Positions 1,992-33,125 of a DNA stretch of 64,000 nt are shown piece after piece. Source of the stretch: Cyanidioschyzon merolae. Its lineage: Eukaryota. Both the position numbers and the translations under genes were made by a program. Each line of letters starts with the position of its first letter. Within the stretch, counting starts at the first letter, position 1. Location of the stretch: the NCBI GenBank assembly GCA_000091205.1, contig AP006493.2. One strand, given 5' to 3'. The notes beneath the pieces are model-generated. The model made no database searches, was not told the DNA's origin, and was given only the letters and a program-made list of their open reading frames with translations.

Positions 1992-4366
1992 AATGATTCG
2001 GCTTATTACGAATGTTCAGAACGTAACACGTTATAGTAACGTAACCAGAGACTCTACGCTTTGCACGCTATGACAGTCGGGAGCGGAGCACTTGTAAAAC
2101 CGCTTATGCACAACTCGAAGCGAGCTTTAAATTAAAACCGTCGTGATCACCAGGCGATGGCCGCACGCGTCGCGAACCATCCTTCAAAAGATGGAGCTCG
2201 TCGCGCCTTCGCCGCGGCGTCCAGGCGACGGCTCGAGATCGACCATCGACATCTGGATCGCCCGTGTGGATCTTCATTGAAGCAGGTGGCGCCACGTGGC
2301 CCCGTCGCCGCGACTCAGTCGAAATCGGCAACGCTGCGGCGCCCTGCCGCGGTGGCCCCGTAGCGCGGGAGATTGCTTCAGCGCTCGACTGTGTCGCGGC
2401 ACGTGCTGTAGACGGAGCAGTGATCGCTAGAAACCCTGCATCAGAACGGCCTTTTTGTTGTTATTTGTTTTTCTCAGGGTTATTGAACAGAGGGATTGTA
2501 TGATGGAGGTTGGAGAAACGTTGTGGAAAGTCTTGATACTATCACAGCTAGTTTGCCATGCTGGTTTTCGTTGTACGAGTTCAGGTATGCTCTGGCTAGC
2601 TCGTGGATGAAGCGCTCCTGTTCTCGTCTCTGTCCTGAGCATCGTGCACGCGAAACAGAAGTCACCGAACGCCACCAAGACGACTGTGTCCTGGATAATC
2701 CATTGAATTCCATGCATTCTATTGGGAACACGGCGAAGGAAGCCATAGGATGTGAGGCTTCCGTGTGGTTCATACGAATGCTGATGAAGACACGCTGATA
2801 GACACAGGAGAAAAACGCTCGTCGTGAAGACTGTCGTGCAATAAACAACACTCTATTGATCTCGTATGGACGCGTGGACGTTTGTTACCGGAGCGTGAGG
2901 TGTTCGTCTCAATCGCTGAGACTCGAATCTGGAGGGATGGTACACCTGTGAATGCCTACTCAAAGAGGGACAAATCGCTATTCCTACAAAGGAGATTAGC
3001 GAGCAGGACGGCACCAGCTGGCCTGGGTGCGAGGCTTCGGTGTCGCCAACACCAAATAGCAAAAGAGCCGTGATCACTCAACTCCTCACGATGCGTCGAA
3101 GCGCTTTTCGGCTTCTCCTTTCCACATTCTTCTGATACGCTCTTGGACAACGTCGCTCTCTGTCACGCAAGAGCGGCCACGGATTGTGCAGCTGAGCTTG
3201 GCATTGAGCTGATGTTTGCGTGAGCCTATTCGTCCTGGTTCCGTCCAGCTGAAGGAGCCTGCTCAGTTTGTCGAACCATGGATGGATGCTCACGACTCAT
3301 TCGACGAGCCGTCCGCATCTGTGACACCATTCTTGGACAAGCCATTCTCCACCTTTGCAAGCCATGAGCTGATGCGTCGCCGCGCTGCTCGTGCCCGGAC
3401 GGGAGCTGAGAGGCGCGCTTCCGTCCGTGGGCGAGCTCTCGGCGGATACGACGATGGAGAGGTGCTTGAGGAGTAGTCGATACATACATAGAAAGGGCGA
3501 GTTTCAGTGCAACCTTCCACCCAGTGCGCCTGAGTCTCCACTGGGAGAACGACATACAGATATGCTCGATAGAGATGGAATGCAGGGCGCCTGCCAGGAA
3601 CTAGAGAAAGAAAAGCGACCACCGGGCGAACCAGAGAAAGAGCCTTCCGAGAATAGGGTAAGGAGCGACGGGGAGGAACAGATGTCGGAGCGACAAGATC
3701 TGTCTCAAAGCGATGCGACCGCTTCCCCAAGAAATGCACCACCCGCGAGAATCTGTCAAGCCGTGAGATGCGAGACGCCATTCAGGATCGCGCAGCTTCG
3801 TACTCAACGAAGGCTCGCCCAGCTGCGCTCGCCCAGACGCGCCTCGTCAAGCATCTGCTCATCGGAGGGCTGGACGCACGGCCGCCAGTTGTCTACATTC
3901 CTCTCATAACCTTTCGATGAAACGTTCGTGCGACAACAGATGGCCAGAAAACAAGATGCAATACGGCCTGGTCGTGGCATCCAGGGTTTGAGAACACGCC
4001 ACCCAGCATGCCGTGACGCTTCGTAGGCCGGCGTCTGTAATGAGAACGTCCGCAGCGCAGGTGCCGGCATGTCTGGGGCCAACCTCAAACACTACATGCC
4101 GGCCAATGTCGAGCGCCCCATGCAGCGCGCCCTCTGCGTGTCGCAGCCTCACCTCAGTGGTCCAGAACAGGGGAGATAGGTTGACGGGATTCTTGGATAT
4201 CGATGGAGGCAAATGACGAGCTGGATACGCAAGAGCTCCAACTGGTATCGACTTCGAAAAGAAAAGCAGCAACGAGAGCCAGAATCGCCCCAGATCGCCC
4301 GACGATATCGTTTAGTGCTCGGCGTCGCACCTGCAGATATCGTATCCGAAAAGTGGCTGAAGCGCA

Positions 4367-4393
4367 CTGCCTGCCTGCCTGCCTGCCTGCCTC
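4367..4393. repeat. (CTGC)6 tetranucleotide microsatellite.
   Basis: Direct read: ctgcctgcctgcctgcctgcctgcctc. Confidence 0.9.
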
Positions 4394-5483
4394 GTTTGGC
4401 TCCTGTGCTACCACGTTTCTCTGGACAGGTGCTTCCAGAGCTGAGCAGCCCCCCTCTCGGGATCCGACCGTCCGGTGCACGTCACGCGTCTATTCGACGT
4501 GGTCTCGGTATGCCAGATCAAGGTGAATCGCGCGTCAGTAGACACTTGTGTACTGGATGGCCTCCTCTGTGCGGTGCCGCTGCTCTCTGCGAGTAAGCCT
4601 GAAGCGTCCGAGCAGCCACACGAAGAGCACTGGCGGCGCTCGTTCAAGATTTCTCGTTTCCAGTGACGACGGCGACCGACGGGATACCAAGCTCGACGGT
4701 CTTTGTGACGCTTGTGAATCCGAAACCTGCGTCGAGCCACGAAACGCATATCCAACGGATCCGGGCACATGAAGGGAAAGGTCACGAGCCGTGCGTCGAT
4801 CCCCGCTGGGGGGAAATCATCACCGCCACCGATTATCTATTGAAAGATGGCGGAGGTCACAACCTGAACGGAAAGCGGATGAACCTGCTCAACCTCTTCA
4901 ATCGCTCGGTATGAGCGGCAGTCGGACGTGATGGGCGCTAGAATGCATACGAACAGCAAGGGGAGCGGTGGCGGCATCAGGACCCAAGTCGACGCTCCAG
5001 GCACCGTATGGAGCCGAGGGTTATGCTTCCTATAATTTATTCCGAGCGTCCATGAGCGACCAAATGCATCGTGTGGAGGGTCTTTGGTGGGCGTCCTTGG
5101 TACTACGCTGAGGTCGCAAACGGTGTCGCTTCTACAGAGGCGGGAAACTCGCATTCACCGGCATTATCGGTGAATTCCAAGCGAAAATCCCCGGCAGGTC
5201 CGATCGTTTCCTGGCGGCAGCCTATGACGCTGGATGTTCAGTAGCGCGCAAAGGACGCGGACCTGCTCATGCTTCGACGGGAGTGTCCAATAAGCTCAGG
5301 TGCCTATGCCGCACGCTTCCTGTCGGTGCGTTCAGCACGACGTACATGCGCCACGAGTGCGGGTGCATGCTGAAAAACCGACAGACAAGAACGGTGCGAA
5401 ACAGAGCTGCATGCGCGAGATGGTGCACTGTCAGCCGCGCAAACGGCAGATCACGAAGTAATCAAAGCTGAGAAGCTCGCTAT

Positions 5484-5667
5484 GCTTACATTTCTTCAAT
5501 AAGAGCGCTTACGTGCATGTACTGTGTCTATCGAGCGTTGGAAAACCCCCATTCCAGATCTCTGGGAACGATCTCGTGCTTACATTTCTTCAATAAGAAC
5601 ACATGCATGTACTGTGTCTATCGAGCGTTGGAAAGCCCCCATTCCAGATCTCTGGGAACGATCTCAT
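5484..5667. repeat. Tandem duplication of a ~92-bp unit (copy 1: 5484-5577; copy 2: 5578-5667). An inverted partial copy of the unit start lies at ~5741-5754.
   Basis: Direct read: gcttacatttcttcaataaga...catgtactgtgtctatcgagcgttggaaa(a/g)cccccattccagatctctgggaacgatctc(gt/at) occurs twice in tandem. cgtttcaataagag appears reverse-complemented at 5741. Confidence 0.9.
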
Positions 5668-8600
5668 GATTTCGGAGCGTCCAGTGGCTTTATGTGTCGC
5701 GCGATCATTCAGGTAAATCGTGTCGTACACTGTATGCGCCTCTTATTGAAACGTTGCAGACTTTCAGTGAGAAGAATCCTAGCGACCCGGAGGTGCGGCA
5801 TTTCGATTGCGTCCTGGAGCGGAATACTGGTACGGTATGAAATAGGCATCCAGGAAAACTGCAGCGCCCTGAGTCCACACTAGGATTGTGTATCCTTGGT
5901 CATTGGTGAACGATAATAGCTTTCCATGATCCGATATGACTGACTATATGGCCTCCATTTGTGTGCTGGTATCCCGCACCAACCCTAATCTGAGCATGCG
6001 CCGGCATCCGCATACTGAGACAACGGTCTTCTGTCCGTGAGCAAACCTTACAGAAGAATATTCAGGGAATGTTCAAGTAGAGGACAGTCCTCCTGCACTT
6101 GGCAATCCGAGTTGCATACGAAGGGAGCGAACGCCAAGGCCAACGCGGCACCCCCTGCAGGAAAATTCAAAGCTGAACATATGCGCAGAGTTTGTGGACA
6201 AAATTTTTCCCGGATCCGCGTCCAAGCTTTGCATCCCCTACTCATCGTGATCGCTGGGTCGGCAGCTTTGCATAACGATAAGCTGGTAGGTAGCCCCGTT
6301 GGACCGCCGTGCCGTAACAGCGCTGAAGCTGACGGCATCAGCAGCGGCGGTGGCAGGCCTACCAAAAACCCAACCTCGAACTACTGATGATGATGATGCA
6401 AGCACAGAGCTTGGCATCTGGGACAGCGTCACTTTCGAATGTGTCCCGATGGCAACCGCCTGCCCACATGTGTTGACGTACCTTGCAACCGATTACAGTA
6501 ACAGTCGTGGAGACGCACGTCCAGGAGTCGTATGCGTTGACGCTCTCGGCGTTCAACGCAGGGCGTCCACCGCGCTACGAAACGCTGTTGCTTGCCATTG
6601 CATGGTAACGGAGTGCCGCTCCCGGAACCCGGCAACCGTATGATTTCTGGCGACTCTCCGAGTTCGGTTTCTATTCAGACGCTCGCTGACAGCGGGAGTA
6701 GGGGTGAGCTGAGGTGCGCTCGGCAGCCACGAAGCGCTCTCTCAGTGAAGGACCCTCCGTGTACGCGTATGCGAGTTCGTTTCGGGTAGACCGATTCGAT
6801 CGAGGCGGACTTTAGAACTCCGGATACACACGGCAGCATCCGACGACACGGATCGGAGATTTAGATTACCGTAACCCCAAGGACCGTTGGATCGAGGCAG
6901 AGTTTTCTGGATGCCTTGACCCTACCGAATTCCAGGAAAGAGATCTCAGTTCCATCACAGACGCTTTGTCGATGCAGCAGGCCCTAGTCTGTCCTCCGCA
7001 CTCTAATACAAGTATGACGGGTTCCATGACCGAGCGACACTGGATGGACAGCTGTCGCCGCGGACGCCGCACAGAGACAGCGTGGTGGTTTGGCGATGCT
7101 TGCGCGGGTGCCTTCTCACGGCATGCATCGGGAACTACAAAAAACGACTCCGAGCGAAGTCGTGAAATGCGAGACGGGAATTTGCAAATGAGTGCTGTAC
7201 CAGCATCGTCATGACGCAAAGGGTGAGCAGCATTTGAGCTGCTTCAGATTCTAAGCACCGTAGAAAACGCAGATGAAATCAGAAGCGAGTATGAAACACT
7301 ACCGGGCGTGCAGCGCTTTCCCCAGACGCGAAGAAACTCGGATCCATTAACGTCAAATTGTAACAAGTCCTTGCAGCGCATTGCGTCTCACATGCACCCC
7401 GAGCACTGCACGGCGGAACAGCCATAGCGCGCCCCTTTTAAACCCGTGCCAGAATAACATACACCAGGTCGTCAGCGACGAGCGTACACACTGACCTTTG
7501 GGGACTCCTTAACAGTATCGTCAGGTTGTTGCCGGCTTTTTCTGTGACGGCTTCATAATCCTCTCTCTTATTCCCGACTTTGAACATAGTGGTCTCTCTT
7601 GTCACTCTGGCAGCGTTGTCAGCGGCCGACGGATGTTGACCGCTGCCGTAAAGTCGAGACTACGCCGGTTAAGGCTGTTGCCAATGCGTTTTATCGATGG
7701 ACGGAAGTTGCGATCTATGCTTTGATTGCCATGCTCACCATCTTTGTATCCAGCCTGGTTGCGCCCCGCACACCGCTGACACTCGACTGTGGTCAGGTGT
7801 TCCAGTACGTCTATCGCGCATCTCATCTGCTGAGCACCGCCCTGTGATACGAGAACGCTCGTTTCATCGCGCGGCACGTGCCCTTTGACAGGGACAGAGG
7901 GCATCACTTGATGCATTCCTCCATTTCCCTGCCGAGCGCCGTACACCACGATCACGGACCTATTCTGGGCGACAATTTAATTGACAGGTACGCTGTCCCA
8001 TTCCATGGAGGATTCGTGGAACACAATAATGTCCATGATGAAACAAGTACCGTAAGGAAACTCCAGGCTGTTCATCAACTCGAGACATTTCGATCCGCCT
8101 CTGGCCGCTCCATGCAAAGCGGTGACGCATTCTCCACTGCGGGCGATCGCTGCGTTGACTAGCGTCCGAATCCAAGACGTTTTCGCATGGAAACACGAGA
8201 CAGGAGAGCGTCTGGAAACGTATCTCGTGACACGTATGATGCTGCTGTGGGATGCTGCTTCCTGAAGAACCATAAAAACGAACGGATTTGTATTTTAAAC
8301 ATTAACAAGTTTAAGACGTGGGAATTCCAGGGAAATCTCGGCGTGAGCTTGTAAACAAGTTGTCAAGTGACAACGTCCAGGTTTTTTCGTCGATCATGTA
8401 GAATCGCGAGTGGCTGCACCCTCGTGTTGCCTTGAAAAAGAGAAATAGAAAACTCGAGAAATCAATGATCTGAGCATGGTACACGTAAGAAAAGGTCAAG
8501 AGCGGAGGCTCATACGTATGAAATGGAACGTGATATCGGTAATTTTACGAACCCTTGTTCCGCGACATCGTGAATCATATCGACTCTGGTGACGTATCGA

Positions 8601-14691: not shown

Positions 14692-15045
14692 ATGGGTCGG
14701 CTCGCAGACCTGGTGTTGAGTGTGCCTGGTACTCGACCACTTGTAACCGCGCTGGCTCGTTGGTACCGTCGCGAGGTCGAGCAGGAGCTGCGCAAGTTCG
14801 GCCTGCGCTACGATGACCTGCTTCTTGAGACGGATCCTGAGGTGAGCGCCGCGCTTGAGCAGTTACCGCCCGCCGAACAGGAACTGCGCTGGAAACGCAT
14901 CAAACGAGCCCTTGACCTATCGATGAAGAAAACGTACTTGGCAGAGAATATTGCGCAACAGGAAGACGTGTGGAACCCTTACTTGCGTGAGCGCGTCTCC
15001 CTGATAAAGCAGAAGAGGCAGGAGCTGATTGAGTCCGGTGAATAA
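14692..15045 (+). CDS. QCR7: Ubiquinol-cytochrome c reductase (complex III) subunit 7 / 14 kDa subunit (QCR7/UQCRB).
   Basis: 117-aa ORF. ARWYRREVEQELRKFGLRYDDLL ... LPPAEQELRWKRIKRALDLSMKKTYL ... NPYLRERVSLIKQKRQE aligns along its whole length with UQCRB/Qcr7 (GLMRDDTI...RLPENLYNDRMFRIKRALDL...YLEPYLKEV). Confidence 0.85.
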   Translation: MGRLADLVLSVPGTRPLVTALARWYRREVEQELRKFGLRYDDLLLETDPEVSAALEQLPPAEQELRWKRIKRALDLSMKKTYLAENIAQQEDVWNPYLRERVSLIKQKRQELIESGE

Positions 15046-17619: not shown

Positions 17620-19809
17620 TTGGTGCATCCCAATATAGGACATATAGGTACATACTGCCCAAGGATGGATGCACCTCCCGCAGCGCATTTGACGCGCGAT
17701 GCGCGTGGCGATTTGAATCAGCGGCTGGCAATCCGCGCGGGTCATCCGGCAAGCTACGCGCGCTGCTCCAGCGGTGCACAACGCAGGCGACGGCACCGAC
17801 AGACGGTTCGCCACCTCGGCTTCGGATTGTCGGGAATGAGCGGCATCCGTGGTACAGCCGAGCGACGAGTGGAGAAGCGGAACCTCCGGAAACAGGGCTC
17901 TTTCAGCTATCATGCTTTGCAAAATCGTCGAGCGAGCGAGCTCGGTTTCTGGTTACCTAGCAGTGCAGCAAAGACGCTATTCGGCTCTCCGCTGTCTCGG
18001 CGATGCTCTCTGGACACGCATCAGGCACCTGTACGATATAACGACCGCTTCAGGAATGATGCGTGGCAACCAGAACTTATCCAAGCACGCGGGGCAGGCG
18101 GAGCGGGGCTACCCACTTGCTCTGAGGCGCAGCGTGCTGCAACGCGTGAGCTGCAGCCTTCGGACACAGGTCGGTCAGGTGGCGACGCTGGTGCGAGTTC
18201 AGCCAAAGCGGGCGACAAGCACCGAACGATAGATGAAAAAGAGTCCAAAAAGCTGTCCAGAAAGGCAGCCGATGACGCACTCGCGGCGCGCAACGTCTCC
18301 GATGCAGCCTACGCCCGTATTTGTGTTGCGGAGCTTCGCAGTGCACTGGATGCGATCCAGAAACGCTGCTTTTTCGCGCGGAAACCAGAGAGCGCACTCG
18401 GAACAGGAGCAACTGAGTTCTGTGCTCGCCTCGCAGCGCGGATTGGAATATGCGTCAGCCAGCCAGACTGTCGATGCCTTGATGTTGGTGCTGTGAGTGC
18501 GGAAAGACCTGCCCAGCACGAGCACCATTCGTCGCGAAACGAAAACGGTGGACGAACAGAATGCGAGAACTGGGCGCTTCTGGTGCGGCGCTTTCACAGA
18601 CTCATCCGCGAGTGGCTCGCAAGGCGAGTCGAAACGGCGCCACTGTCTGCGCACACCGAAGACGGCGCCTGTGGACCAACTGACTCCATGCATCCAAGCC
18701 GTGGCTTGATGCGGTTCCAGAGCGACGCCCTTACAGATGCATCGGATCCAGACAATGGTGATGAGCAGGAAAACGCCACGACGCCTGGCTTGCATCCGAT
18801 TTTCCATGCCTCATCGCTGTCCAGTAAAGCGGCATTGTCGCAGCGATCGATGCCTGCGGAGCCCGAGATCATTCGGCACACTCTCGCCGTCGAAGCGGAT
18901 ATCCAAGATCGTCGAAAGAGAATACTCCAGGACGTATACCGCGAGCGTGAAAGGTCCGCTGCTTTCCCGAACGATGTGTTGCCCGCATCCAGATCATCTT
19001 TACGTAAGGGTTCGCAGCAGGGTGCATACGCAACTGCCGAGCATGAGGATGAGCTGATCCACGCTCTGGAGTTTCTGAGATCGTCCATTAGCGAGAGGGA
19101 AGCTGAGCTCGAGATGCTCACCAACGAGCAGAGTCAGCTGGAGGCGATGCTCCAGGAGCTCCTCGCCAGCTGCGCCCCTGTTACGGCGGCAAGAGTGCGA
19201 GCCAACATCGATTCCAACGGAGTTTCGAATTCAACAAGCGAGTCGCGACCTCGTCGCCCAGTGTCCAGCCCACAGACGAGCGTGCTGGACCCTGCTGACA
19301 CGATCGAATCCAACGATCGACGACGAGCGACGTGCTCCGCGGCTGCCGAACTGGAGCGCCAGGCTTGCGTACCGACGAGCAACACGCGCCAGGACGACAG
19401 CGACTGCCCTGAATCCGCTGATCGTAACAGATTGCATCCACGATGTTTCAGCGAGCCCGGCCCTGAAGAGCTCGTGTCGCAACATTTGGAACGCGAAAAG
19501 GCAGAACAGCGAGCTGCAATGATGTTGCAACTTCTATTCGCTTCATCGACCTCGCCGAGTAAGACCGTTCATCGTCGACGACATGTTGAAATGGTGGCGA
19601 TCGAACTCGTTACTTCAATGCTCGCATTGAAGCCCTCTGGAGCGATCCAGCTCTCGGGCGATGACGACGAAATGATAGCCATTGAGTTCCTCGAGATGCA
19701 CGGTCTCGTTCGTTCTCAGCGTTCGAATCGATGCCTCGCTTCGCCTACGGCAACTCCAGACGGCACCGCGAAAGAGTATTTCTTTACCGAACCTGCGAGC
19801 AACGCGTAA
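17620..19809 (+). CDS. Hypothetical low-complexity protein with a predicted coiled-coil segment (729 aa). Orphan.
   Basis: An uninterrupted 2.19-kb ORF is far too long to arise by chance even at this GC content. It is Ser/Ala/Arg-rich with a heptad-like segment EREAELEMLTNEQSQLEAMLQELL. No recognisable domain. The true start may be an internal Met. Confidence 0.6.
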   Translation: MVHPNIGHIGTYCPRMDAPPAAHLTRDARGDLNQRLAIRAGHPASYARCSSGAQRRRRHRQTVRHLGFGLSGMSGIRGTAERRVEKRNLRKQGSFSYHALQNRRASELGFWLPSSAAKTLFGSPLSRRCSLDTHQAPVRYNDRFRNDAWQPELIQARGAGGAGLPTCSEAQRAATRELQPSDTGRSGGDAGASSAKAGDKHRTIDEKESKKLSRKAADDALAARNVSDAAYARICVAELRSALDAIQKRCFFARKPESALGTGATEFCARLAARIGICVSQPDCRCLDVGAVSAERPAQHEHHSSRNENGGRTECENWALLVRRFHRLIREWLARRVETAPLSAHTEDGACGPTDSMHPSRGLMRFQSDALTDASDPDNGDEQENATTPGLHPIFHASSLSSKAALSQRSMPAEPEIIRHTLAVEADIQDRRKRILQDVYRERERSAAFPNDVLPASRSSLRKGSQQGAYATAEHEDELIHALEFLRSSISEREAELEMLTNEQSQLEAMLQELLASCAPVTAARVRANIDSNGVSNSTSESRPRRPVSSPQTSVLDPADTIESNDRRRATCSAAAELERQACVPTSNTRQDDSDCPESADRNRLHPRCFSEPGPEELVSQHLEREKAEQRAAMMLQLLFASSTSPSKTVHRRRHVEMVAIELVTSMLALKPSGAIQLSGDDDEMIAIEFLEMHGLVRSQRSNRCLASPTATPDGTAKEYFFTEPASNA

Positions 19810-19907: not shown

Positions 19908-20525
19908 TTAGTGCCTATTCGTTTCTGAGCTTGCCGAGCTTGACACAGTCGCAGCGTCCAGCACGTGCTGAACTTTATCAGCAAATGCTCGTTCCTCCAG
20001 AGCCCGCAGAACCAGATCCGCGCCACCGTCCTCCGCAGTGCCGGACTCGGTGGTCTTTTGTGCTGCTGGCAACCGCCTCCGCGGCCGATAGCTCTGCACC
20101 ATAGCCGTCGGCAGCCGCACCTGGGCCATGGGCGTTGCCGCATTCCACTCCCGCCGCAGCAAGATGCGGAGCTGACGCAGCTCCGCCGCGCTCTCCTGCA
20201 GCTCTCTGTGTAGCTGAAACGCGTTCACATGCTTCTCTGGCGAAGCGCCTTGCCTGCTAGCTTTTGCACTGACGCCGCCCTCCTCTTCCTCGACAAGACG
20301 TGCGAGCTGCGTGGCGCCCTGTCGAAGCTCCCTCACCAGCGCCACTGTTCTACCGCAGAGACGCCCAACAAAGTGCGCAGCCCTCGGGAGGTCCTGCGGT
20401 TTTAGTACCAAGCCGATTCCCAGCGCGAGCACGAAAAGCTGCGTGAACCCACCGTCGTTATACATCAAGCGCGCGACTCCTGGCTCGGTGCCGTACGCTG
20501 CGCTAGAAGCGCATCCGCTTGACAA
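19908..20525 (-). CDS. tatB: Twin-arginine translocase TatB/TatA-family (Hcf106-like) protein. The likely true start is the second Met at 20465 (MYNDGGF...).
   Basis: From the second Met the sequence MYNDGGFTQLFVLALGIGLVLKPQDLPRAAHFVGRLCGRTVALVRELRQG is colinear with E. coli TatB [50 protein letters not shown]. It has an N-terminal TM helix, a P-x-x-LP hinge, a basic amphipathic helix and an acidic, unstructured C-terminal tail. The overlapping antisense ORF 20311..21000 looks like GC-rich noise. Confidence 0.55.
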   Translation of the reverse strand: MSSGCASSAAYGTEPGVARLMYNDGGFTQLFVLALGIGLVLKPQDLPRAAHFVGRLCGRTVALVRELRQGATQLARLVEEEEGGVSAKASRQGASPEKHVNAFQLHRELQESAAELRQLRILLRREWNAATPMAQVRLPTAMVQSYRPRRRLPAAQKTTESGTAEDGGADLVLRALEERAFADKVQHVLDAATVSSSASSETNRH

Positions 20526-20685
20526 GCCAACGAGGTGGTGTGGTTTCGAAGTTGAGAGTGCGCGGTCACAGCACTGTCACCGAACTTTGAAAGCCAGATC
20601 GCTGAAGCAGTGCATCCGCATACCCGCAGATAACCGTCTACGGCACCGTGCAGTGCCTTGTGCAGCTCTCTCGAACGCCTCGAGC

Positions 20686-20712
20686 GCAGCAGCAGCAGCA
20701 GCAGCAGCAGCT
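20686..20712. repeat. (GCA)9 microsatellite.
   Basis: Direct read: gcagcagcagcagcagcagcagcagcagc. Confidence 0.9.
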
Positions 20713-23079
20713 CAGTTGATAAAAGCAGAGCGATTTATCGATGCAAACGTTGCTGCGGAGGCTGCGGGTGTGCCGCGGTACCTGCCGAGGTCTCGCTGGC
20801 CGTGCTCACACACGAGCAGATCCCTCCAGCGTCCGCTTGGAACGACGAAAGCTTTCCACCAAACTGGGCATACCCGAGTGCATGGCGGTTATCAATATCC
20901 GGGAAACTGTGCATCATGCGGCACCAGAGCGGCGCTTGTCACCGGCCATTACCCGCAGGTTCCTGCTGGATCGCTCGATACGGCATTCATGTCAGCATAA
21001 AATGGAACAAGCGCTCTAACTCGAGCCTGCACACGAAATCTTGGGACGCTCGTTCCACTGTGATCAACAACCGCCGTTGCATACATTTCTCCTGTTTCGT
21101 TTTTCGCTCTCTAATTTCCGGCTCTAGATCCATTGGTCACTCTTTATCGTCCGGCTCTGCTGCTGGCATTCAGTGGATGATGCTGGTATGGTGCTAGTTC
21201 AGATTTCGCGATAATCCGATGTTGGTCACGCGTTTCACGCACAGGGAGTAGTTGCAATCTACGATTCGTTTCCCATTTTGGACGTTCTTTGCATGCAGCT
21301 TCGGTGTGGCATGCCCAGCTGTGACATTTGACCGTGGAACGGTGCTCGGGCATTTGCATCCTATCTGCTTTTCGAAGCGCTGCAATGAAGCGCGTGAACG
21401 ATTGCTTCTTCGCTCGGTACATGCTCTTGACAAGCACAGAAGGTAGCCGTCGATGTGCGCTTCCGTTTCCGCGCCCAGTGCGGTTCCCTAGGATCAAAAA
21501 TTTCTCCAGGGGGAATGCCCGCAGCGAATTCCCTTTCTGCTGCATGCGTAAGCGCACGCTGATCCGTTCCATGGAGGAGGTTTGGAGCAGGTTATTTTCC
21601 AGGATGACACGAGTATCGGAAGGAAAATTCAGGGTGGCTAACAAATCGAGAAAATCGATTCCTTAGCACATTCTCCGTACAGATCGCTGGCGGGCGCTCC
21701 ACTGGAAGCGATGCCAGTGACGATCAGAGTCCATTACTCGCTTCCACGCGAACAGATGAGACGTGAGTCACTGGGAGCGTATCCCCTGTGTGGTATCATG
21801 CTGCTGTCGAATGCCGTTTCAACGATGTTTACAATGAGCGGAGGATTTGTATTTCGAACGGAATCGCTTATTAGACGTGACATGTTCAGCCAACATTCGA
21901 CATGAGCGTATGAACAAGGCGTCATGCGATGCTGTCGAAATATATATTTCCGCCATCAATCATGCAGTGCGACTAGCTTCGCCCAAGCGTTGCCTTGAAA
22001 CGAAAAAATCGGAAATATGAAGCATGCATGCCCTGAACGTATCACGAGTACGGAAAGCTGAGGCATGCAGACTCGTACGTTTGAATCAGAAAGAACTATC
22101 GGTTAGTTCACGAGCCCTGGTTCGAATGCGTACAGCGGTATCTCGATCGAGACAACGTGGTAAATTTCAGCAGCAAAGCGTCGAAGCAGCCACTGCGCAA
22201 ACACGACCGAGAACTCCTTGGACTACGTAGATATCCTTCGGCCCCTATTGCTGTTCTGAGAACATCGAGCAGTTCCTCAGTAAAAAGTTCGGGGAAAAGC
22301 GCAGGCCAGGATGAACACGAGCTATGCTGAGTTCCATTTTCATCCGAGACAGGTGTGCAGGTGGTAGGGTGTCGAGCCATCAGCGCAGTGCACACACCGC
22401 ACATCGTAAATGAGAAATCCGCTTCGAGCGACCACAAGCGTGTATCGTGACGCGCCTTCCGCACAACCTGTGCCTCGCGTCGTGCGCGGTTAGCTTCCAG
22501 AAAAGCGCGGGTCCGACACCCGCGATGTTCGATGCTCGCTTTGCCGCGAACGCTTCCTGGGTCGGTATGCGGACTTTTGCCGAAGGCCAAGGTGCGCCGT
22601 CGCGACTGGCGCACAAGCCTACAAACAAGTATCGGATGTTGCGTGGATTAGCGGTTTCCGAAAGATATAACCTTCATCATCGGAGCACTTCGCAGAGGGC
22701 CGATCCTGATAAAGGTGCACAAACTACTCGGCTATGCGCCGCAGCGAGCATGCTGCCACGCGGAAACGCTGCCTCTCGTTCAGGTTCTTGCAGTGTGCTT
22801 CCAGAGCGTCCACAGAGACGCAACGCCCGCCACTCGTCACAGACTGTAACTGGCATCAACTCGTCGTCGATCAATGTGGCATGCACCCTTTTTGAGAAAA
22901 ACCCCTTTGCCAAGAACTGCTGTGGATTCGCATGCACACGCTTTGGCTGCGAAACGTACCTGGTGCATGGTCTGGCTGCCTGAGGCGGCACGAGTCTGCA
23001 ACCACTGCGTTGTGCATGCCATGAGCGCAAGCGCCGCGGTCTGGTCCAGTTCGCTCTGGTCGCACCGAGGAACCGGACA

Positions 23080-24495: not shown

Positions 24496-25260
24496 TTACC
24501 TCGCTTGCAACGGCCGCACAACACCCACATATCTCCTTTGCATCGTTCTGCAAGCGTTCCACTGCACAGATGCGGTGCTTCTACCGTGAACGCGGGGATT
24601 TCGTTGCGCGGGGATGTCGGAGGCGACGTCGCGGGGCTCACCGGCGCCGTTCCCCGCACGATAGACATCCACGCGGCGGTGGCGCACCAGCGTCGACCAC
24701 CAGTTGCGAGCACGAGCGGCGACGGCGCGTGTTTGCCGTCCCAGCCTCCGATGACGTTTCCGATTGCACGGTGGGGCGGCACGTGCCGCACGCAATCTGG
24801 TGGACGCGAACTGCTGAACACGCTGTTGCATCTCGGTGCAGCGACACGCAGCGCGCTGCAGCCGCGCACGCATCAAAGGATCGCGCGCGCAACGCGGCGG
24901 CGGACACATCGAACGCACCGGCACGTCGGATCGCTGCGGCCTGGCGCGCCGCGATCTCTCGCAGGGCGCGGGCGTCCACGAGGCGCCACCCGCATCACCC
25001 CCGGACTTGGCCTGATCGTCGACCATAGGGGGCCGGGCGACGAGGGCGTACAACGCCGCCGCCGCCGCCGCCGCTGCTGCGAGACGGTGCAACGCATCCT
25101 CCAGTCGTGATTCGAGGCGGCGGGTTGCATGTCCGAAACGCGCGCGCTGTAGCTGGCAGATGGAGCCGTTGCGTGGTACGTCGTTTCTGCGGCCTAGCGC
25201 AGGTAAGCAGCGCTTACGGGATTTGCATTCGGTTACGCTGGCATTGACTCGTGGTTGCAT
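24496..25260. other. Extremely GC-rich island, open in 5 of 6 frames, located 5' of the bHLH gene.
   Basis: Five overlapping Arg/Ala/Pro-rich ORFs on both strands within ~750 bp, containing a (GCC)6-7 run at 25055-25080. Pattern typical of GC-rich non-coding/CpG-island-like sequence rather than real overlapping genes. Confidence 0.6.
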
Positions 25261-31052: not shown

Positions 31053-33125
31053 GTGCTGCGGCATAACCGCAGGAACGGAGCACGTATGAGTGCGACCAAA
31101 GTCGAGCCAAACCCGGCTGCGGACTCTTCGCGATCCCTCGTAGTCATGGGGAGGCTACCTAGTGACGCTGATGCGGGGTCGCGCTCAACGCAATCGCTGC
31201 GTTCGGCCGAGGGGCGGCGGAAGGTGCTCCGCTGGCTCCAGGCGTCCGGTTGGTGGCACCCCGTAGACAAGCGCTGGGATAGCACGGCGAGCACGCTCGA
31301 CGACGTCGATGAACGTTACTTGTCTCCGTGTTGTTCTTCACGGAAAGTTGCTCGTGTGGAAAACGAGAAACTTACGCAACCGGGCAGTGGCGCAGAGGAC
31401 AATCCTCTTCAGCGTCATCTTTGCAAAGACGGTGCCCTGTCACCGAACTCGAGACCTTCAAACTGGGAAACACTGGATTTCCCGCAGCTGCCAGCGCACA
31501 TACTATCGATTTTATCGCGAGCGGAGGAGGAGCTGATGAAGAGCAGCCATAAGAACAAGAGCGTGGAAATCGGAGACACCGTATCACTGGACCCTGATGA
31601 TGCTGACTGTCGATGCCGCGATCAATCCGCTCAATCCACGACTGAAAGCCAAACACCAGAGAAAGCGAAATGCACGGCGTTGATACCACTAGACCATAAT
31701 TCCGAGGCCTTCGATCCTGAAGGCGATCTCGGTCACACATCAAAAGCGGTTGAAAACGAGGCATGCCCTGCGTACTTGCCGGACGCGAGCTCACGGGTAT
31801 CAACACCAGCCCAACCGCGAAGGCGTTTAACAGGTGCACAGCGACGGCGATTCGATCGGGCATGTGAAGCTGCCCAGCAACTCTTGTTTCGACACGATTG
31901 GAAGTCTGTATCACAACAAACGAAAGAAACCGCCATGATATCAAGAACCGAGGTATCTCCGCAGACTCCGAATCTGTCGCCGTTGTCTGCAGACCGCCTG
32001 TCGCCAACGAAGCGGCGACGACGTGCTCACGCAGCCGCGGTAGTGACACCAGAGCCCAAGTCGTCCGTGCGTGCTAAATGGCCGGCTGTCGTTCCAGCGC
32101 AACGACGTCTCTGCTTTGAAAGCTCATCTGAATCGAATTCGAGCGAATTCCTCGAAAGCGAAGAAGAAACCGTGACAGAGGAAAGCAGTACCACCTCCAG
32201 CGCGGATGTGGCTGGATCCATGACCAGCCCGCTGGTGCGCGCACGCCATACACCGGTGTCTCTGCGTGCCGCACAGCCTTCGAGTGCTCTTTCGAGATCC
32301 ACTGCAACCCAACGGGCACGTCAGCGACGCTCCAAGTCAGAGGATGCGTCCGGTGCGACGCTCCAGGGCGAGCATGACAAGATCCAGCGCATTTCCCGAC
32401 AGCGGCCCAAGTCAAGCGGGCGCAATCGGGGATCCTCTGCCAACCGGGGAAACAGGGAGCCAGCCGAGCGCGCAACACGATCAACGAACACTCGCGAGGC
32501 CTCGCCTAATAAGCGGAATGCCCGCGCAAACACCACGAACGAAATGATTGCAGACGAATCCAGTGCTGTTACCTCGACAGCCAAGTCCATGCGTCGCGGA
32601 AGCGCGCAAAAGTCAGAGGCAGCGAAAAAGTCTCCACAACGGACGCGCGGCGCATCGTTATCCGCTATGCCGAAGGCAGATTCCAAGGCCACAGTGTCGT
32701 CGCATGAGGAGCACGCCCCAGATTACTGGCAAGCGCAGCGAGAGCGAGCATCCGCCCGTCAGGCGGTATTCTACAATGCACGCTACTGGTCCCAGGCCAA
32801 CATGGCAGCATACGTCGCGCGACTGCACACGATTCAGGCACGAACGTATCCGCACCTGAGCGTTTCCCCGTTGCTGCTCACCGGAGCGACACCGCTGAGT
32901 GCGTGCTCGGCGTACCCGCAGCATCCGCTGGTGCAGCACCTACCGGCTGAGGCGTGTCGATTCGACCCGCGAGCCTCCGGTCGAACCGTACCATGCGCAG
33001 CATCGGTACCGGTATCGTCGCTGTATGCCGGTCCAATGGCGAATCAGACACTTGCCCAGAGCGTTTCGACCACCGAGAGTGAGTCTGCTGGGTCCATTCC
33101 ATCGGCTGGGATGCGCACGCCATAG
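31053..33125 (+). CDS. Hypothetical Ser/Arg/Ala-rich, probably nuclear, disordered protein (690 aa). Orphan.
   Basis: Uninterrupted 2.07-kb ORF. Basic clusters such as KRRRRAHAAAV and RRRLTGAQRRRF look like nuclear localisation signals. No recognisable domain. Confidence 0.55.
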   Translation: MLRHNRRNGARMSATKVEPNPAADSSRSLVVMGRLPSDADAGSRSTQSLRSAEGRRKVLRWLQASGWWHPVDKRWDSTASTLDDVDERYLSPCCSSRKVARVENEKLTQPGSGAEDNPLQRHLCKDGALSPNSRPSNWETLDFPQLPAHILSILSRAEEELMKSSHKNKSVEIGDTVSLDPDDADCRCRDQSAQSTTESQTPEKAKCTALIPLDHNSEAFDPEGDLGHTSKAVENEACPAYLPDASSRVSTPAQPRRRLTGAQRRRFDRACEAAQQLLFRHDWKSVSQQTKETAMISRTEVSPQTPNLSPLSADRLSPTKRRRRAHAAAVVTPEPKSSVRAKWPAVVPAQRRLCFESSSESNSSEFLESEEETVTEESSTTSSADVAGSMTSPLVRARHTPVSLRAAQPSSALSRSTATQRARQRRSKSEDASGATLQGEHDKIQRISRQRPKSSGRNRGSSANRGNREPAERATRSTNTREASPNKRNARANTTNEMIADESSAVTSTAKSMRRGSAQKSEAAKKSPQRTRGASLSAMPKADSKATVSSHEEHAPDYWQAQRERASARQAVFYNARYWSQANMAAYVARLHTIQARTYPHLSVSPLLLTGATPLSACSAYPQHPLVQHLPAEACRFDPRASGRTVPCAASVPVSSLYAGPMANQTLAQSVSTTESESAGSIPSAGMRTP

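Follow-up and report, generated by a model that had tools for sequence, protein, structure and literature searches.

The mitochondrial twin-arginine (Tat) protein translocase of several eukaryotic lineages is split between two genomes. A nucleus-encoded mitochondrial TatB has been described in plants, ochrophytes, oomycetes, cryptophytes and jakobids, and it always occurs together with a TatC encoded by mitochondrial DNA (mtDNA) (PMC6251230; PMC7050145). In Arabidopsis, mTatB comigrates with mTatC and is required for insertion of the Rieske protein (PMC13456617; PMC8662606). The glutamate within the transmembrane (TM) helix is described as conserved and "essential" in eukaryotic TatB, and mitochondrial systems that consist of TatC alone and are unable to complement E. 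coli are also known (PMC6251230). Among red algae, mitochondrial genomes carry tatC (ymf16), with the exception of that of Galdieria sulphuraria (PMC4316638), and red algae are absent from the eTatB-positive taxa in Table S1 of PMC6251230, the search set of which included the Cyanidioschyzon merolae proteome. The plastid TatA and TatB of plants are synthesised in precursor form, and processing to the mature proteins takes place on import (bioRxiv 10.1101/2020.04.06.026997).

Here we describe CMK033C, a gene located within a 64,000-nucleotide stretch of C. merolae DNA (the window), whose product we consider most likely to be a divergent TatB-type subunit of the mitochondrial Tat translocase that has no cleavable presequence.

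A conserved nuclear gene on the minus strand

The window contains a minus-strand open reading frame (ORF) at 19908..20525, in which CMK033C is read from an internal ATG. The predicted protein is 100% identical to CMK033C of C. merolae 10D (P0016 / XP_005536464), and both the ORF and the peptide quoted from it in the earlier note on this DNA were correct. The features that define the gene and its surroundings are as follows.

19908..20465, minus strand: complete coding sequence of the TatB-like protein CMK033C, 185 aa plus stop (ORF listing, 100% identity, codon-position identity, dN/dS)
20577..20579, minus strand: in-frame TGA, 38 codons before the ATG (sequence read directly)
20311..21000, plus strand: antisense ORF of 229 aa, not a gene (no credible Pfam match, not conserved)

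CMK033C lies on a chromosome-scale sequence (contig of 852,849 bp), and its neighbours are nuclear genes, encoding the RNR small subunit, an HLH protein, a RabGAP, a DEAD helicase and QCR7. Syntenic orthologues occur in Cyanidiococcus, Cyanidium and metagenomic cyanidialeans, in a conserved order of RNR-small, HLH, CMK033C and then a convergent gene. The orthologues are only 34-54% identical and their synonymous sites are saturated. Read in the minus-strand frame and compared with the orthologues, the identities at the three codon positions are 0.64/0.70/0.32 and dN/dS ranges from 0.15 to 0.26; this frame is under purifying selection, and CMK033C is a real, conserved gene of the nucleus. The QCR7 gene, about 5 kb away, was considered as a functional link and judged coincidental, being not syntenic in Cyanidium. 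The labels given to CMK033C differ among resources: it is hypothetical at NCBI, bears the automatic name TatB in UniRef and is called TatA by JGI.

The overlapping antisense ORF had been dismissed as noise in the earlier note, and we likewise reject it as a true gene. It is present, but a Pfam scan of 20311..21000 (plus strand) gave no credible match, the longest antisense ORFs at the two closest orthologous loci do not exceed 88 codons, and the third-codon-position pattern agrees with the minus-strand frame.

The N-terminus

The product of CMK033C starts with MYNDGGFTQLF at the sole in-frame ATG (20465..20463), and all orthologues begin at the same methionine. Because an in-frame TGA (20579..20577) lies upstream and no in-frame ATG occurs between it and the ATG at 20465, there is no space for a presequence without an intron. 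The TM stretch consists of 17 uncharged residues and is preceded by only four residues, with a net charge of -1. An N-terminal plastid transit peptide is absent, with the TM stretch beginning at residue 5 and the frame closed 38 codons upstream; CMK033C has no N-terminal extension.

The same N-terminus recurs throughout the family. All 11 members have at most eight residues ahead of the TM stretch, and these never include Arg or Lys; they are acidic in 10 of the 11, and the remaining member (P0006) has none. The amphipathic helix that follows the TM stretch carries a charge of +3 to +5 across the 11 members. The earlier claim for this gene, of a TM helix right at the N-terminus and no presequence ahead of it, applies to all of the orthologues and distant relatives examined.

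Homology to TatB

Taken as a single sequence, CMK033C offers weak support for homology to TatB. The Pfam model PF02416 (TatA_B_E) gave no match for the window protein or for any of the four members of an alignment of its homologues (A1), even at E values up to 10, and precomputed Pfam annotations were empty for all homologues. The model TIGR01410 (tatB) was the best NCBIfam match for each of the four sequences that were scanned, which represent three distinct proteins (E of about 2e-4), and aligned residues 5-54 of CMK033C to positions 3-52 of the profile, with a score of 21.4 bits (E = 2.8e-4) that does not reach the curated cut-off of 56.5 bits. With all of the curated Tat models, CMK033C falls far short of the cut-off, whereas the two bacterial TatB proteins scanned exceed that of TIGR01410 (P0007, 67.7 bits; P0011, 58.4 bits).

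Profile methods gave significant matches. When 1.8 billion representative proteins were searched exhaustively with a profile, only 13 matches came back, five of them bacterial-type TatB (E = 2.9e-5 to 8.7e-4). In an hhalign comparison of the cyanidialean sequences with these bacterial TatB proteins, residues 4-64 matched residues 3-63 (97.9%, E = 6e-13), a match of about 60 residues with a consensus identity of about 41%. The top five matches of a 10-sequence profile in the PDB were all Tat subunits, with TatB first (E = 8.4e-4); the chloroplast TatA (7b7o) was a weak match to this profile (E = 0.23). In another comparison, E. coli TatB (2mi2) aligned over 3-102 to profile positions 4-112. Two profiles, the 10-sequence one and another trimmed to the N-terminus, were also used in word-indexed homology searches, and these added almost nothing new. 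The earlier note had named the lack of a significant PF02416 match as grounds for refutation, and such a match is indeed lacking. Since the profile methods are significant, we take the lack of a PF02416 match as low sensitivity, and this check as too strict.

The match is positional rather than compositional. Against the bacterial TatB HMM, the real N-termini scored 24-50 bits, as opposed to a maximum of 7.6 bits for shuffled sequences (n = 3000) in which the TM and amphipathic segments were kept separate. The corresponding z values were 5.7-10.2, including those of P0004 and P0005, which played no part in choosing the bacterial TatB set. An in-register match to TatB from the N-terminus, as first proposed from the sequence alone, is reproduced in the TIGR01410, 2mi2 and hhalign alignments.

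Hinge residues serve as type signatures, with G-P in TatB and F-G in TatA. The CMK033C family has the proline after the hinge position and the x-x-L-P motif, and CMK033C itself has a helix at residues 23-69 with two further helices; all of these are TatB-type features, and TatB models and structures rank above TatA ones. The counterparts of E8 and G21 of E. coli TatB are absent, and Gln9 and Lys22 occupy those columns. On these comparisons, CMK033C is assigned to the TatA/B superfamily as a divergent protein of the TatB type.

Architecture of the predicted protein

The predicted protein comprises an N-terminal module that aligns with TatB and two additional helices.

20403..20453, minus strand: short N-terminal TM helix, residues 5-21, GGFTQLFVLALGIGLVL (AF2 helix 5-20, uncharged 17-residue stretch)
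20385..20402, minus strand: hinge K22-P-Q-D-L-P27, counterpart of TatB G21-P22-x-x-L-P (helix break in the model, alignment)
20259..20384, minus strand: long basic amphipathic helix, residues 28-69, with the motif G34-R-x-x-G38-R and an acidic EEEE patch at its end (AF2, alignment)
20136..20222, minus strand: second conserved helix, residues 82-110, FQLHRELQESAAELRQLRILLRREW (AF2 helix 82-110, pLDDT 82-90)
19932..20027, minus strand: conserved C-terminal helix, residues 147-178 (AF2 helix 147-178, shared motif)
19980..20024, minus strand: core motif of the C-terminal helix, G148-ADLVLRALEERAFA-162 (common to other family members)

The order of helices in the AF2 model (TM helix, break at KP, long amphipathic helix, two more helices) agrees with the TatB layout. 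A Foldseek search of the PDB with this flexible helical model was uninformative, with a best E value of 3.3. Within the TM helix, Gln9 is invariant in cyanidialeans and sits at the position of Glu8 in TatB and Gln8 in TatA; hhalign aligns it with Glu8, in keeping with the earlier reading of the polar TM residue as Gln and not Glu. The residue is TatA-like at this position.

The model helix breaks at residues 21-22, and the hinge that follows is aligned by hhalign to GPKDLP of bacterial TatB, with K22 opposite the hinge Gly21. P23 and P27 show little or no variation across the family. The replacement of the hinge Gly by Lys stands as originally noticed, but it is not peculiar to this gene: the eukaryotic family commonly has Lys or Arg there, and Lys is also found (IKPKDLP) in P0011, a bona fide bacterial TatB that scores above the TIGR01410 cut-off. 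The amphipathic helix (charge of +4, hydrophobic moment of 0.63; residues 23-69 in the AF2 model) aligns to that of TatB, and its G34 and G38 do not vary within the eukaryotic family.

The remainder of the protein is not simply the acidic disordered tail that it had been taken for. Residues 60-185 have a charge of +1 and include the two further conserved predicted helices (82-110 and 147-178). The first of these is conserved not only in cyanidialeans but also in P0006 and P0022, and the motif of the second is common to P0004, P0005, P0009, P0010, P0013 and P0014. The C-terminal helix is unmatched in the bacterial TatB alignments, in which the match ends at residue 64.

A eukaryotic family

The cyanidialean sequences align over their full length with a second eukaryotic group (hhalign, 99.2%, E = 3.8e-19), in an alignment that includes the C-terminal motif; the second group itself matches bacterial TatB at 95%. 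As judged from these alignments, CMK033C is a member of a eukaryote-wide family that combines a TatB core, the second helix and a C-terminal GADxVxRAxEExAFA helix, the last of which is specific to eukaryotes. This C-terminal helix is a concrete feature of the family that had gone unremarked. Some distant members are on contigs of non-red-algal look, and one of these proteins is encoded next to a TPI-GAPDH arrangement, which is typical of stramenopiles. No Galdieria-named NCBI-sourced protein was present among the 13 exhaustive matches, for 8 of which names were looked up. An approximate bait for At5g43680 drew no plant protein and was kept out of every test counted as evidence.

A probable mitochondrial TatB and its possible roles

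The architecture and phyletic pattern of CMK033C agree more closely with a mitochondrial-type TatB than with a thylakoid Tha4/Hcf106 precursor. This preference had been voiced in the earlier note, and the N-terminus of every orthologue and relative examined is consistent with it. Reasoning from the literature and the architecture, the protein is probably located in mitochondria, and its partner is most likely an mtDNA-encoded TatC, the gene for which we take to be present in C. merolae mtDNA.

Synthesis of the CMK033C product would take place in the cytosol, with no cleavable presequence. After import, the short TM helix at its start would hold it in the inner membrane of the mitochondrion, its N-terminal end facing the intermembrane space and its C-terminal part the matrix, which is the topology that bacterial TatB has. 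The strongly basic amphipathic helix that comes directly after the hinge probably has a second role, that of an internal import signal resembling a presequence. The TM helix, including Gln9, would pair with the TatC encoded by the mitochondrial genome, and the resulting TatBC receptor, by analogy with mTatB/mTatC of Arabidopsis, would help to carry the folded Rieske Fe-S domain across the inner membrane during assembly of complex III. More speculatively, and with odds that we put well against it, one nuclear protein may do the work of both TatB (receptor) and TatA (pore or membrane weakening) in a two-component cyanidialean mitochondrial Tat, in keeping with its TatA-like Gln in the TM helix; the C-terminal GADxVxRAxEExAFA helix, which protist homologues also have, would then be a new module docking the translocase onto late intermediates of complex III assembly.

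Alternative explanations

Red-algal plastids use the Tat pathway and need nuclear TatA/B-type subunits, and this requirement lends some weight to the proposal, unlikely in our view, that CMK033C is a thylakoid or plastid Tat subunit (equivalent to Tha4/Hcf106), or a dually targeted one, that acts with a plastid-encoded TatC and lacks a classical transit peptide. The name TatA that JGI pipelines apply to CMK033C and its relatives is in line with this proposal, and dual targeting of a plant Tat subunit has been proposed (bioRxiv 10.1101/2020.04.06.026997). However, an N-terminal extension occurs in none of the 11 family members and the frame is closed upstream, and the bacterial matches are to TatB of the proteobacterial type, the one named being from a Pseudomonadota MAG. 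Moreover, the extra C-terminal helices are common to proteins from contigs that do not look red algal, and no Galdieria-named match was found among the exhaustive hits (with names looked up for 8 of the 13), yet Galdieria is photosynthetic.

We consider it quite unlikely that CMK033C is a TatB-derived single-pass membrane protein that no longer takes part in Tat transport, such as an assembly factor for complex III or another complex that works without TatC, or that its TM and basic helices arose by convergence. Convergence is hard to reconcile with the shuffling results and with a match that is significant in a library of 1.8 billion proteins and in register from residue 3-4. The polar TM position, hinge Pro and LP motif, which are important for contact with TatC, are strongly conserved and shared with bacterial TatB, which argues against departure from the Tat pathway. 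The sub-threshold scores of the curated Tat models, the Glu-to-Gln and Gly-to-Lys changes at signature positions, the two additional conserved helices without bacterial counterparts, and the precedent of TatC-only mitochondrial systems that fail in E. coli complementation (PMC6251230) would fit such a departure, but the hinge Lys is itself present in a bona fide bacterial TatB.

That the nucleus acquired tatB recently from a bacterium by horizontal transfer, or that the sequence is bacterial contamination, is extremely improbable and is rejected. The earlier note had allowed for a recent transfer, and the collinearity with bacterial TatB, which starts at the first residue, and the missing eukaryotic targeting extension might suggest one. 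Against both ideas stand the chromosome-scale sequence on which the gene lies, nuclear synteny across three cyanidialean genera, Cyanidiococcus and Cyanidium included, and with a metagenomic relative, the divergence of the orthologues and the saturation of their synonymous sites, a bacterial match restricted to some 60 residues at about 41% consensus identity, and the eukaryote-specific C-terminal helices shared with distant homologues in a eukaryote-wide family.

Significance

Mitochondrial Tat is patchily retained among eukaryotes. In the literature examined, a nuclear TatB partner is reported in plants, stramenopiles, cryptophytes and jakobids, and red algae are not so reported; if CMK033C is the mitochondrial TatB that we propose, a red-algal member would widen the TatBC arrangement within the Archaeplastida. 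Galdieria, which is without a mitochondrial tatC, offers a natural co-loss contrast. C. merolae is genetically tractable and nearly free of introns, and it would allow studies of Tat-dependent Rieske and complex III assembly; should a single protein carry out both the TatA and the TatB roles, it would constitute a minimal model for mitochondrial Tat. The NCBI label "hypothetical protein" and the JGI label "TatA" could be merged into that of a TatB-like, probably mitochondrial, protein.

Comparison with known systems

The precursors of Tha4 (cpTatA) and Hcf106 (cpTatB) resemble CMK033C in belonging to the TatA/B superfamily and in being encoded by nuclear genes of photosynthetic eukaryotes. They differ from CMK033C, which has no transit peptide and no PF02416 match and which fits TatB better than TatA-type proteins.

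The similarity to Bcs1 concerns the proposed import route only. Bcs1 enters via TIM23 as a hairpin, its internal signal consisting of a TM helix and, next to it, an amphipathic helix with positive charge. CMK033C, which has no sequence relationship to Bcs1, has by analogy a short N-terminal TM helix followed by an amphipathic helix of charge +4, with no cleavable presequence.

With bacterial TatB (TIGR01410; 2mi2 and 9dzz; proteobacterial), CMK033C shares the in-register N-terminus, the short TM helix that is polar at position 8-9, the x-P-x-[DE]-L-P hinge, the basic amphipathic helix bearing G-[RK]-x-x-G-[RK] and the presence of more helices beyond it. Unlike the bacterial proteins, it is nuclear and eukaryotic, has Gln for Glu8 and Lys for Gly21, scores a sub-threshold 21.4 bits, and possesses two extra conserved helices to which bacterial TatB has no matches.

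The closest described system is the mTatB/eTatB of plants and other eukaryotes (Arabidopsis At5g43680 and homologues; Carrie et al. 2016, cited in PMC6251230; PMC7050145; PMC13456617). By published description, the two differ in the TM residue, a conserved signature Glu in mTatB/eTatB and Gln in CMK033C, and in the hinge Gly, which is Lys or Arg in the CMK033C family. In both cases, a nuclear gene, accompanied by an mtDNA tatC that is probable for C. merolae, encodes a TatB-like N-terminal TM helix, a hinge and a long amphipathic helix, with C-terminal additions beyond bacterial TatB (185 aa in CMK033C versus 232 aa in Arabidopsis), and in both the protein is so divergent that standard models hardly detect it.

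The gene and its antisense overlap

The TatB-like reading frame recognized in the earlier note, with its internal methionine at 20465, is present in the ORF listing. Direct reading of the sequence places its single in-frame ATG at 20465..20463 (-); a TGA at 20579..20577 (-) closes the frame upstream, and no ATG lies between that TGA and 20465. The product is therefore a 185-residue protein starting MYNDGGFTQLF. It is 100% identical to C. merolae 10D CMK033C (XP_005536464), named "hypothetical protein" by NCBI, TatB by UniRef (automatically) and TatA by JGI pipelines. The gene sits in nuclear DNA (contig of 852,849 bp), and the window, with about 55% GC and long ORFs without introns, is consistent with C. 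merolae nuclear DNA. Features at the locus are as follows.

19908..20525, minus strand: TatB-like ORF (ORF listing)
20311..21000, plus strand: antisense ORF, 229 aa (ORF listing)
20503..20514, minus strand: upstream ORF of three codons (ATG CGC TTC TAG), 38 nt ahead of the TatB-like start
about 20686..20710, minus strand: about 8 CTG repeats, some 220 to 245 nt upstream of the TatB-like ATG, in the presumed promoter/5' region
17620..19809, plus strand: convergent neighbour, 729 aa as counted from TTG, its end some 100 bp away from the stop codon of the TatB-like gene

The three-codon ORF would fall in the 5' UTR if transcription begins further upstream. On the plus strand, the CTG run is the source of poly-Ala and poly-Ser in two spurious ORFs, 20311..21000 and 20658..21197.

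The TatB-like ORF is a real minus-strand gene. The order RNR small subunit, HLH protein, TatB-like gene and convergent gene is found in the window and at all three loci compared (Cyanidiococcus, Cyanidium and metagenomic). Against the Cyanidiococcus gene, identity at codon positions 1, 2 and 3 is 0.64, 0.70 and 0.32, and dN/dS is 0.15 to 0.26 for comparisons with unsaturated dS. As a gene, the antisense ORF can be ruled out: it has no match in a family search and is not preserved at the two closest orthologous loci, in which no antisense ORF exceeds 88 codons, in line with its earlier description as GC-driven noise.

Orthologues of the window protein, with identity to it
P0002, Cyanidiococcus yangmingshanensis, 54%
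P0003, metagenomic cyanidialean, 52%
P0004, Cyanidium caldarium, about 34%
P0005, unplaced relative, about 35%

Orthologues of the convergent neighbour (487 to 550 aa) hold the same position in 3/3 related loci, and in Cyanidium the neighbour overlaps the 3' end of the TatB-like gene. No Pfam family matched this neighbour, and two further window ORFs, 24496..25260 (-, 254 aa) and 31053..33125 (+, 690 aa), had no Pfam match at E ≤ 1e-3.

Homology to TatB

Taken singly, the sequences offer marginal evidence for TatB. Pfam PF02416, the family to which the earlier note had looked, gave no match to the window protein or to the other members of alignment A1 (P0001, which is 99% identical to it, as well as P0002 and P0003). 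NCBIfam TIGR01410 (tatB) was the best match for every member scanned, at 21 bits (E about 2e-4), which falls below its cut-off of 56.5 bits.

The profile tests are clear. An exhaustive hmmsearch with the A1 profile over 1.8 billion representatives returned 13 matches at E ≤ 1e-3, comprising cyanidialean relatives, five eukaryote-style proteins of 170 to 250 aa and five classic bacterial-type TatBs with the GPKDLPR motif (E = 2.9e-5 to 8.7e-4). The two bacterial TatBs scanned with TIGR01410, P0007 and P0011, both exceed its cut-off. The colinearity with TatB from the start codon that had been proposed is borne out by TIGR01410 (profile 3-52 to protein 5-54, in register) and by hhalign of five cyanidialean sequences against the five bacterial TatBs (residues 4-64 versus 3-63; 97.9%), whose E value of 6e-13 is inflated by pre-selection of the bacterial set, the library-wide hmmsearch values being the unbiased figures. 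When a 10-sequence eukaryotic profile was searched against the PDB, the best five matches were all Tat subunits: TatB 9e03_B (E = 8.4e-4), a TatA, E. coli TatB 9dzz and 2mi2, and TatAd. Foldseek of the model against the PDB was uninformative.

A purely compositional resemblance is ruled out by permuting the transmembrane (TM) and amphipathic segments separately: real N-termini score 24 to 50 bits with the bacterial TatB HMM, and 3000 shuffles of each reach at most 7.6 bits. This control also covers P0004 and P0005, neither of which was involved in selecting the bacterial set. By these comparisons, the window protein truly belongs to the TatA/B superfamily, as a divergent protein of the TatB type.

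Signature residues and additional helices

The AlphaFold model (mean pLDDT, 69) predicts helices at 5-20, 23-69, 82-110 and 147-178, with a break exactly at K22-P23. Two classic TatB signature residues are missing, as had been noticed earlier: Gln9 stands in place of Glu8 and Lys22 in place of the hinge residue Gly21. The replacement at the hinge is a family trait, most eukaryotic relatives carrying Lys or Arg there. P0011 (84 aa, from a Logan contig; hinge IKPKDLP; 58.4 bits with TIGR01410; runner-up model, Rickettsiales TatB) is a bona fide bacterial TatB with Lys at this position, as in the cyanidialean proteins. Glycine at the hinge is therefore not a requirement in every TatB.

The "acidic disordered tail" of the earlier note is not simply so, since the C-terminal part holds two more conserved, predicted-helical segments, FQLHRELQE..AELRQLRILLRREW (residues 82-110) and GADLVLRALEERAFA (residues 148-162). 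The latter recurs in P0004, P0005, P0009, P0010, P0013 and P0014. The cyanidialean set aligns over its full length with a second group (P0009, P0021, P0010, P0013 and P0014, one of them from a Tara Oceans scaffold; hhalign 99.2%, E = 3.8e-19, 1-184 versus 1-174), which independently matches bacterial TatB (95%, E = 3.4e-8). The window protein belongs to a eukaryote-wide family with extra helices.

At the locus of the distant member P0022 (L005), the adjoining TPI gene (3649..5777, -) has introns and a presequence-like (mitochondrial) N-terminus and is followed by GAPDH on the same strand. A TPI-then-GAPDH arrangement is typical of stramenopiles, where a mitochondrial TPI-GAPDH fusion is known; the pair resembles that fusion and hints at a stramenopile-like host lineage for this contig.

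Targeting and compartment

The TM helix lies at the extreme N-terminus with no presequence, as first described: in 11 of 11 family members, at most 8 residues precede the hydrophobic stretch. The lead-in contains no Arg or Lys in any of the 11, and its net charge is -1 or -2 in 10 (P0006 has none). After the TM stretch, all 11 carry a helix whose charge is +3 to +5 and whose hydrophobic moment is high. Bacterial TatB has the same layout of short lead-in, TM helix and basic helix. This arrangement speaks against both a plastid transit peptide and a matrix presequence. The TM helix and basic amphipathic helix could act as a Bcs1-like internal import signal, which would give an N-out/C-in topology.

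Nucleus-encoded mitochondrial TatB is known from plants, ochrophytes, oomycetes, cryptophytes and jakobids, and mtDNA-encoded TatC accompanies it in every case (PMC6251230; PMC7050145). The Arabidopsis protein co-migrates with mTatC, and Rieske Fe-S insertion into complex III depends on it (PMC13456617; PMC8662606). In red algae, tatC/ymf16 is present in the mitogenomes, Galdieria sulphuraria being the noted exception (PMC4316638); no Galdieria-named protein was seen among the exhaustive hmmsearch matches, a point of negative evidence. We infer the compartment as a whole, and a mitochondrial TatB pairing with mitochondrial TatC is favoured because of this literature pattern, the missing transit peptide and the proteobacterial type of the bacterial matches. 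A plastid or dual role, alongside or instead of the mitochondrial one, retains some probability, with the N-terminal layout speaking against plastid import by a transit peptide. The recent bacterial transfer once offered as an alternative is rejected, since the gene is syntenic and deeply diverged and the additional helices are specific to eukaryotes.

A 117-aa ORF at 14692..15045 (+) encodes QCR7, the 14-kDa subunit of complex III (PF02271, E = 1e-21). It is some 5 kb away from the TatB-like gene, for which a role in Rieske insertion into complex III is proposed. QCR7 is also a neighbour at the Cyanidiococcus and metagenomic loci; it is missing at the Cyanidium locus, so the proximity is probably coincidental.

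Relation to known TatB proteins

Petrů et al. report no red alga as eTatB-positive, although the proteomes of C. merolae, Galdieria, Chondrus and Porphyridium were among those they searched (PMC6251230). Our literature search found no mention of CMK033C or of a red-algal mitochondrial TatB. The automatic UniRef name is already TatB. Recognizing CMK033C as TatB-like is useful for annotation and provides a tractable model. Given the absence of red algae from the eTatB list, the outcome of the literature search and the existing UniRef name, the window protein is a divergent addition to the already known TatB-type proteins.
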